Positions 1-2,172 of a stretch of DNA of 64,000 nt are shown here, one piece after another. The stretch's first letter is position 1, and each line of letters opens with the position of its first letter. The notes under the pieces are model-generated. The model did no database searches. It saw nothing but the letters and a program-made list of their open reading frames with translations, and was not told where the DNA came from. The DNA comes from Escherichia coli (lineage in GTDB: Bacteria > Pseudomonadota > Gammaproteobacteria > Enterobacterales > Enterobacteriaceae): NCBI RefSeq assembly GCF_044324785.1, contig NZ_CP172127.1; one strand, given 5' to 3'. Both the position numbers and the translations under genes were made by a program.

Positions 1-2172
1 GCCGCGTTCGTCATACTGCCACTGCTCTGCAGGTTCACCCTTCACGGTACGCTGCGTGATGCGGTCTGCTTCGTCATAGTGCCAGTGGGTGACCAGCCCC
101 TCATCCTCGCTGCGGATAAGTTTGCCGGTCAGGTCGTGGTGATAACGCTGTGTGCGGCCGTCAAAGCCGGTTTCCTGTATCAGCCGGTCGAGTACATCGT
201 AACGGAAGGTGGTGTGGCTGCCGTTTTCACTGGTCAGGCGGATGACCCGTCCGGCAGCATCGTATTCCATACTGCGCGTCAGACCGCCCTGCGTGGTACG
301 GATGGCCTTTCCCCACGCATCGTACTGTGTCCCGTTTCTGCTGCCGTCCGGGGCAATGACGGCGGTCAGGTCACCGGCGGCGTTGTATTCATACCGCGTT
401 TCATGGCCCTGCATGTCTTTCACCGCAATTAACTGTCCACGGCTGTCGTATGCGCGGTACTGGCTCAGGCCTTCCTCGCGGTGCACCGCCGTCACCTGAC
501 CAAAACGGTCATGGTCATAACGGGTTACATAACCGGAACAGTCAGTGACGGTCAGCAACTGACCGTAACGGCTCCATGTCATGGTTTTCCGGCTGCCGGT
601 GGCATCTTCCGTTGCGCAGGGTAAGTCACTGTGTGGATTATCATAACGGTAGCGGGTGATATCGCCGTTGTGTGCGGTTTCCTGAATCAGACGGCCGGAT
701 TCATCATATTCCCGGCGTATTTCCAGCCCGTCAGTCCCGGTGGCTGACGTTAACTGGCTGTGGTGGTTATAGTAAAACGCCGATGCCCTGCCATCCGGCG
801 TGGTGATGCGCGTGATGAGGCCCGTCACCACATCCGGGCTGTATTCTGTTGTCCGGCCTGCGGCATCCGTCTGTGCCTTAAGCCTGCCCACCGCATCAAA
901 CTGACTCTGCGTGACGCTGCCGTCCGCGTGTTCCTTTTTCACCACCCGCTTCAGCCCGCCTTCGCCTGCGGTATGCAGGACTTCACGGCGGTCCAGACTG
1001 TCGGTGATGGTGATGCGGTCTTTCTCATACTGATACGTGTAGCTTAAGCCTGCCGGGTTTAGCTGTTCTGTCACCCGCCCGTCGCTGTCGTAACGGTAAC
1101 GGATTTCCGGCCGGCCCGTGTGACGGTGCGCCACCATCCGGCCCCGGTATTTATCATCGTAAGTAAAGCTGCGCACCTGTGTGCCGCTGCGGTCATACAC
1201 CGCCGCCAGTTCGCCGCGTGGCGTCCAGCCATAGCGTACCAGCGGCGCGGCTGGCAGGTTGTCCGGATATTCCGGGTCGTGCGTCAGCCACACGGCAGAC
1301 AGACGGATGCCGTTGTCCCGGCCATATTCGGTGTAACCCGGCAGGGTATCAGGAAAAGCGGACGGTTCCGCCCCGCCGGAAATGGCCTGCTGCCGGGCCT
1401 CTTCTGCCCGCTGCGCCTGCGTGGTCAGTACCAGCCGGAAGTGACGCCCGGCACCATCCGTCACGCCGGTGATTTCGCCGCTGAATTCGCCGCCAGCCTC
1501 ACGGTGGAACGTCTGTGTGCGCCCGAAGCGGTCCACCAGCCCGGTCAGTACCCGGTACGGCGGCAGCGGCGCGGGCAGCACCTCATCCGCCTCCGGCACC
1601 CGCTCACACCAGCCGAGTACCCACCACGGCCCCTGCGGACTGTTTGTCGCCAGATAACGATGCGGACTCAGGTGAAGCTCTTCCGGCAGCGCCTGCCAGA
1701 GTGCGGCCAGCCGGTGACCTTCATCCAGTTTCGCCATGCCGCCGCGCACCAGCCAGAGTGACTCGCTGCGGCTGTAACCGTCCTCACCGGGAAACAGGTG
1801 CTCAAAATACAGGCTTCTGCCGCCGTTATCACTGAGTATCAGTGTGTTATCGCGCAGCTGTAAGCGGATATCCGCAGGCATTTTCCAGCCGGGGCCGAGG
1901 CTCCCCACCGGCGCGGGCGTTTTTGTCCGGTAACTGCTGTAGGTGCGGGAGAGGATGAACGGCAGCGGGCCGGGCAGGGCAAGGTCGGTTTCTCCGGGAA
2001 GGACCTTCGCACCGAGCAGCGGATTGACCGGATGGCCGGACGTCACCCCGCCGGGGCACACCGAACAGGCCACGCCGGTGGGGGCACCAATACGTACCCC
2101 GGCTGAACCCTGAACAATGCTACCGCCATACTGCGTCATGTCGCCCTGACGCGCCGCCGGTTTTCCGCTCAT
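1..2172 (-). CDS. rhsA: Rhs element core protein, N-terminal ~724 codons; 3' end runs off the window
   Basis: Reverse strand from ATG at 2172-2170 reads MSGKPAARQGDMTQYGGSIVQGSAGVRIGAPTGVACSVCPGG..., the typical Rhs N-terminus, and the frame stays open to position 1. Absent from the ORF track because no stop lies inside the window. The A-type assignment comes from the yibF/selAB neighbourhood. Confidence 0.85.
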   Translation of the reverse strand, partial: MSGKPAARQGDMTQYGGSIVQGSAGVRIGAPTGVACSVCPGGVTSGHPVNPLLGAKVLPGETDLALPGPLPFILSRTYSSYRTKTPAPVGSLGPGWKMPADIRLQLRDNTLILSDNGGRSLYFEHLFPGEDGYSRSESLWLVRGGMAKLDEGHRLAALWQALPEELHLSPHRYLATNSPQGPWWVLGWCERVPEADEVLPAPLPPYRVLTGLVDRFGRTQTFHREAGGEFSGEITGVTDGAGRHFRLVLTTQAQRAEEARQQAISGGAEPSAFPDTLPGYTEYGRDNGIRLSAVWLTHDPEYPDNLPAAPLVRYGWTPRGELAAVYDRSGTQVRSFTYDDKYRGRMVAHRHTGRPEIRYRYDSDGRVTEQLNPAGLSYTYQYEKDRITITDSLDRREVLHTAGEGGLKRVVKKEHADGSVTQSQFDAVGRLKAQTDAAGRTTEYSPDVVTGLITRITTPDGRASAFYYNHHSQLTSATGTDGLEIRREYDESGRLIQETAHNGDITRYRYDNPHSDLPCATEDATGSRKTMTWSRYGQLLTVTDCSGYVTRYDHDRFGQVTAVHREEGLSQYRAYDSRGQLIAVKDMQGHETRYEYNAAGDLTAVIAPDGSRNGTQYDAWGKAIRTTQGGLTRSMEYDAAGRVIRLTSENGSHTTFRYDVLDRLIQETGFDGRTQRYHHDLTGKLIRSEDEGLVTHWHYDEADRITQRTVKGEPAEQWQYDERG

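Follow-up and report, generated by a model that had tools for sequence, protein, structure and literature searches.

A reading frame that runs off the edge of a sequenced stretch raises two questions at once: to which element the visible part belongs, and what stands at the end that is out of sight. The stretch analysed here (the window) is 64,000 nucleotides of Escherichia coli DNA from contig NZ_CP172127.1 (assembly GCF_044324785.1), and such a frame opens it. We consider it very probable that window 1-2363 belongs to the Rhs element at the rhsA locus and contains its promoter-proximal part, namely a 191-bp leader followed by the 724 codons that open a core gene of the RhsA/B/C/F (clade I) subfamily; the gene reads leftward and is cut at the edge. 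The reading frame, its family, its locus and the right boundary of the element are all shown by the present analysis.

Translation of window 1-2400 gives a minus-strand frame that starts with an ATG at 2172 and stays open for 724 complete codons to base 1, with zero leftover bases. Its N-terminus is MSGKPAARQGDMTQYGG. None of the 724 visible codons is a stop, and no insertion sequence lies in the visible part of the gene (window 1-2172). The frame was missing from the mechanical list of open reading frames because it runs past the window edge. Plus-strand frames within 1-2172, the longest of 213 aa, were rejected as shadow frames of a GC-rich gene. The features of this region, in window coordinates, are as follows.

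1..2172, minus strand: 5' part of the Rhs core gene at the rhsA locus, codons 1-724 of about 1380 expected (from the reading frame, Pfam, NCBIfam and K-12 RhsA).
1..1317, minus strand: YD/RHS repeats, aa ~286-724, the opening portion of the beta-cage shell (from Pfam, TIGR01643 and PDB alignments).
1804..2037, minus strand: DUF6531, the conserved N-terminal domain of Rhs core proteins (PF20148, aa 46-123).
2038..2172, minus strand: N-terminal 45 residues with a single weak PAAR-like motif and no full PAAR domain (PF05488, sub-threshold).
2173..2363, minus strand: AT-rich leader 5' of the rhs start, part of the accessory element (GC 0.361; absent from Rhs-free alleles).
2401..3009, plus strand: yibF, glutathione S-transferase, a conserved flank gene (from the annotation in strain N3 and K-12).

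That the frame encodes an Rhs core came from several profiles. The 724-aa fragment contains 10 stretches of RHS_repeat (PF05593, E=1e-59) and 6 of TIGR01643 (E=9.7e-37), and the full DUF6531 profile (positions 1-74 of 74) aligns to aa 46-123 with an E-value of about 1e-18 to 3e-19. The NCBIfam model NF041261 (RHS_core, 'RHS element core protein') aligns over its positions 1-732 of 1261 with 1492 bits. The fragment falls below the equivalog cut-off of 2000 bits because the gene ends at base 1, and the full-length relative in L004, the closest assembly, scores 2622 bits. The original prediction, that only the N-terminal part of an Rhs core is in the window, is borne out by the partial NF041261 alignment, the DUF6531 domain and the 724 open codons. 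The visible share is about 58% of a 1247-aa core, taking the end of the DPxGL motif in the relatives as the core end. In the protein homology search, the 90% clusters matching the fragment have 14,000-26,000 members, too many to pick out an identical full-length protein. The core has a GC content of 62.2%, as against 36.1% for the leader, 55% for the flank and 51.2% for the whole window, and this contrast is the classic composition of Rhs elements. Tandem YD/RHS repeats, DUF6531 and a GC-rich core within a strain-variable element are all found in this fragment.

Which rhs locus this is cannot be told from the visible 2.2 kb, because the K-12 rhsA, rhsB and rhsC cores are equally similar to it, each with 95.8-96.3% identity across the 2172 bases of the window copy; the flank alone identifies the locus. 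The neighbours on the right are yibF, then selA, selB and yiaY, and the window is collinear with yiaY-selB-selA-yibF-rhsA of E. coli K-12 (96.2% identity) and with strain N3 (99.0% identity). Since this gene order and collinearity agree with the published position, in which yibF and yibH flank E. coli rhs position 10 (Jackson 2009, PMC2935791), the element in window 1-2363 is the rhsA element of E. coli. The yibF flank is seen in the window; the yibH flank lies beyond it and was found in every relative whose sequence reaches the far side of the element.

The right boundary of the element comes from Rhs-free 'empty' sites. In L012 and L023 the gap between yibH and yibF is about 70 bp, and homology of both sites to the window begins at 2364, so that the right end of the element lies at about 2363. 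The interval 1-2172 given earlier for the element therefore matches the open reading frame exactly but leaves out the leader, as the element itself reaches about 2363. A simple scan of 2100-2450 for a consensus sigma-70 promoter and for terminators found nothing. DNA like the visible core was found in 3896 of the 5426 complete E. coli genomes, at a median of 3 places per positive genome. An exact look-up of the window SelB protein returned 3587 blocks, including empty sites and alternative tips.

Other features stand further along the window. A Fic-family gene (7811-9106, 431 aa), which L004, L023 and others share, separates yiaY from aldB; K-12 and N3 lack it, and their alignments break at 7733/7759 and resume at 9102. 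Just 5' of the Fic gene are two 30-nt direct repeats containing palindromes (7726-7755 and 7776-7805). The yiaW/yiaV/yiaU/yiaT block occupies 10756-14742, where N3 and L002 have a type I restriction-enzyme fragment and a HicAB toxin-antitoxin instead; yiaWV is a paralogue, about 69% identical, of yibIH, the genes across the Rhs element. The genes glyQ and glyS lie at 45498-48488, so the window spans part of the rhsA-rhsB interval. A duplication of glyS in that interval is the origin of the name Rhs ('rearrangement hot spot'). Rfam models placed a sok antitoxin RNA at 48661-48812, adjoining a cspA 5' UTR thermoregulator at 49488-49916; a tRNA at 61112-61185 followed by RtT at 61223-61356 and naRNA4 (region to 61530); and two copies of ES036, at 29868 and 63765.

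What lies beyond base 1 was approached through relatives. As the gene is transcribed leftward from the minus strand, its core boundary, tip and immunity gene fall beyond base 1, which is where the original prediction had placed the toxin tip and the immunity gene. Lineage mates were found by exact-protein look-up with the window YibF. From 2400 to 11178 the window matches L004, a 5.68-Mb contig, at 100% identity, and the rhs gene of L004 is intact at 1380 aa, with the core boundary PVSGFDPLGL at aa 1238-1247; L002 and N3 also have an intact gene of 1380 aa, and the DPxGL boundary falls at the same residues in L002, N3, L016 and K-12 RhsA. The remaining part of rhs in the closest assemblies is 656 codons, or 1.97 kb past base 1. 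After rhs, L004 has a 111-aa open reading frame (GC 0.280) that lacks a family match, then an orphan Imm57 gene and, within about 3.8 kb in total, yibH. In window-equivalent positions of L004, rhs ends at -1970, the 111-aa frame at -2435 and Imm57 at -3329, and the yibH flank is reached at -3787. The earlier estimate that about 3 kb of further sequence would be needed was a good one, as the ends of rhs, of the candidate immunity frame and of Imm57 in the closest assemblies stand at 1.97, 2.44 and 3.33 kb.

The tip in L004 is 133 aa long and has a GC content of 0.353 vs 0.620 for the L004 core. It contains LAHEMGHA (HEMGH). When the tip was scanned alone, Peptidase_M91 (PF14891) matched with E=3e-7 and 31.4 bits (cut-off 25), covering profile positions 6-113 of 176. 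Against the PDB, the sequence of this tip had no solved homologue and matched metzincins only marginally, around HExxH (E about 0.16). The Peptidase_M91 match suggests that the tip of the relatives is a putative zinc metallopeptidase of Peptidase_M91-like type. The family Peptidase_M91 includes the zinc metalloprotease effectors of NleD type, with which the tip shares HExxH; in contrast to them, it is much shorter, is fused to an Rhs core and is paired with a small downstream frame. The 111-aa frame is the likely immunity gene. Its counterpart in L002 (5166-5573) and N3 is 135 aa, compared with 111 aa in L004 (5165-5500), with a 1-bp offset, and the 135-aa version has a hydrophobic, signal-peptide-like N-terminus; the N-terminus of the orphan Imm57 protein is also signal-peptide-like. 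The same M91-like tip is found in L003, L002 and N3, and the tip with its frame, at 99% identity or more, occurs in 180 of the 5426 complete E. coli genomes. Other tips found at the rhsA locus are those of K-12 (protein of 1377 aa, followed by yibA), L019 (1398 aa) and L016 (1425 aa). Judging from the closest genomes, the rhs gene of the window would continue for about 656 codons, through the PVSGFDPLGL boundary, and end in the 133-aa AT-rich HEMGH tip, which would be followed by the candidate immunity frame, an orphan Imm57 gene and yibH.

Comparison with K-12 RhsA (b3593) shows how far the likeness goes. The two copies share the chromosomal position by yibF, selA and selB, the leader, the start codon, 96.0% protein identity over the 724 visible residues, and the order of DUF6531 and YD repeats in a GC-rich core. 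They part at the other end. The K-12 protein has a 130-aa tip after PVTNTDPLGL, then yibA, with the orphan fragments yibJ, yibG, yibS, yibW, yibV and yibU, whereas the closest relatives of the window carry the Peptidase_M91-like HEMGH tip, the 111-aa frame and one orphan Imm57.

How such a protein could act is suggested by solved relatives. The best are Tse5 of P. aeruginosa (8cp6, E=2.7e-82, aa 286-707) and RhsA of P. protegens (7q97, E=8.9e-48), and Rhs1/Tre23 of Photorhabdus laumondii (7pq5) and the PAAR-Rhs of S. bongori (8qjb-d) belong to the same group of type VI secretion effectors; their YD-repeat shells are homologous to that of the window protein (E=2.7e-82 to 3e-21). Published structural work describes the YD repeats as a closed cage round the toxin tip, with a cut at DPxGL (PMC8636562, PMC8765631). 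By homology, the toxin-enclosing cage and the cleavage at DPxGL should be common to the window gene. The YD repeats would fold into a closed beta-cage around an unfolded tip, and an aspartyl-protease activity at the DPxGL boundary would free the tip inside the cage. The loaded cage would then be delivered to neighbouring bacteria, which for most studied Rhs proteins takes place on a type VI secretion spike, and the immunity protein would shield sibling cells.

The solved effectors differ from the window gene in having a full PAAR (or VgrG) module and in lying beside vgrG or other type VI secretion genes. In the visible rhs, the PAAR motif profile PF05488 reaches 16.1 bits against a cut-off of 27 (E=0.013), with aa 2-20 aligned to profile positions 51-69, so that the N-terminal PAAR domain of PAAR-Rhs type VI effectors is not found there. 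No vgrG, hcp or other type VI secretion gene was found in the 64-kb window or beyond the locus on its far side in the relatives. The genes of the window are ordinary chromosomal ones (yibF, selAB, yiaY, Fic, aldB, yia, xyl, glyQS, bisC, eptB and dppA), and those on the far side of the locus in the relatives are yibH, yibI and the mtl genes. The PAAR motif of the RhsA/B/C/F subfamily is only vestigial and no vgrG is linked to the gene, and any type VI export of these proteins is putative.

We infer the tip of the source strain from these relatives, and the mosaic core weakens the transfer somewhat. Over 11 kb, the window and L004 differ at 24 nucleotides, and 24 of the 24 lie within the core, at 154-1673. 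The visible proteins differ by 6 amino-acid changes, with the frame preserved. Window bases 1-153, nearest the missing end, are identical to L004, which would favour an L004-type tip in the source strain. L005, a draft assembly from this lineage with a contig that stops within the core, has the alleles of the window over 720-1673 and differs from it at 16 sites over 1183-2113, where the window is the same as L004. The alternative core alleles match K-12 rhsA, rhsB or rhsC. When window 1-2172 was compared with L004, L005, L022, L024 and L025, the differences were found to form blocks of alleles shared between paralogues. The core copy in the window has either arisen by gene conversion among rhs cores or is in part a chimera made during assembly.

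Among the 5426 complete E. coli genomes, the best match to window 1-6400 is 99.0% identical, and none exceeds 98.3% over 1-2172; the exact first 100 bases of the window are absent from the species-representative genomes and metagenome contigs. Over 6400-30000, the window is at best 96.5% identical to any complete E. coli genome, which reflects a locally recombined stretch. Origin from a cryptic Escherichia clade was rejected, since other parts of the window share 97-99% identity with ordinary E. coli.

The mosaic leaves room for an intact gene that ends in a tip and immunity pair other than the Peptidase_M91-like one, obtained by core recombination with another rhs copy. The core is mosaic with respect to the lineage mates and has alleles known from K-12 rhsB and rhsC, at least four distinct tips are found at the rhsA locus in other strains, and the M91-like tip is limited to the 180 complete genomes mentioned above. 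However, L004 and L003, the two lineage mates that reach past the core, share one tip with N3 and L002, the next-closest genomes, and the window is identical to L004 in the 153 bases closest to the missing end. We regard another tip as unlikely. It is also conceivable that the visible core is partly an artefact, in which near-identical rhs cores were collapsed by short-read assemblers. Seven drafts with the same YibF (L005-L011) have contigs that end inside or just before the rhs core, at differing points, and base 1 of the window may itself be close to a contig end; moreover, the three K-12 paralogues are as similar to the window copy as stated above, and the differences between lineage mates are confined to this repeat. 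On the other hand, the reading frame is perfectly kept, with only the 6 amino-acid changes relative to L004, and Rhs elements are documented to undergo gene conversion between their cores (PMC2935791). An artefact is in our judgement quite unlikely.

A stronger form of the recombination argument would be that the source strain has acquired, through its rhs core, a toxin tip with its immunity gene that had not occurred at the locus before or is undescribed. This is very unlikely; if true, the sharp confinement of 24 of 24 differences to the core would record very recent and repeated gene conversion, datable within one clonal lineage. Least probable, and in our view very improbable, is that the element is a remnant whose gene is broken past base 1 by a frameshift, stop or insertion sequence and makes no toxin: in L003, 6 indels distribute the rhs region among three frames and an IS1 separates yibH from Imm57, and vestigial rhs loci have been reported for some E. 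coli lineages (Jackson 2009, PMC2935791), but the 724 visible codons have no stop, L004, L002 and N3 have the gene whole, with 1380 aa, and the L003 indels, scattered over the locus in the pattern expected of long-read assembly errors, are probably such errors. The IS1 was seen as an extra ~1.3 kb between yibH and the Imm57 gene when L003 (GCA_028598205.1) was compared over 1-10000.

We return to the reading of window 1-2363 as the promoter-proximal part of the rhsA-locus element, cut at the edge. Such an element is already known, as a textbook Rhs element at the rhsA locus; the finding holds, and it is an ordinary one. Descriptions of Rhs elements between yibF and yibH go back to the 1980s-90s, and the logic of polymorphic toxins and their immunity is established. 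The first 2.2 kb of the core identifies neither the paralogue nor the tip, because rhsA, rhsB and rhsC have cores of equal similarity, between which sequence is exchanged. With the flank taken into account, the truncated frame can nevertheless be confidently labelled rhsA, 5' part, and its missing end would be predictable from lineage mates as a tip resembling an HExxH metallopeptidase, followed by an immunity frame and an orphan Imm57.
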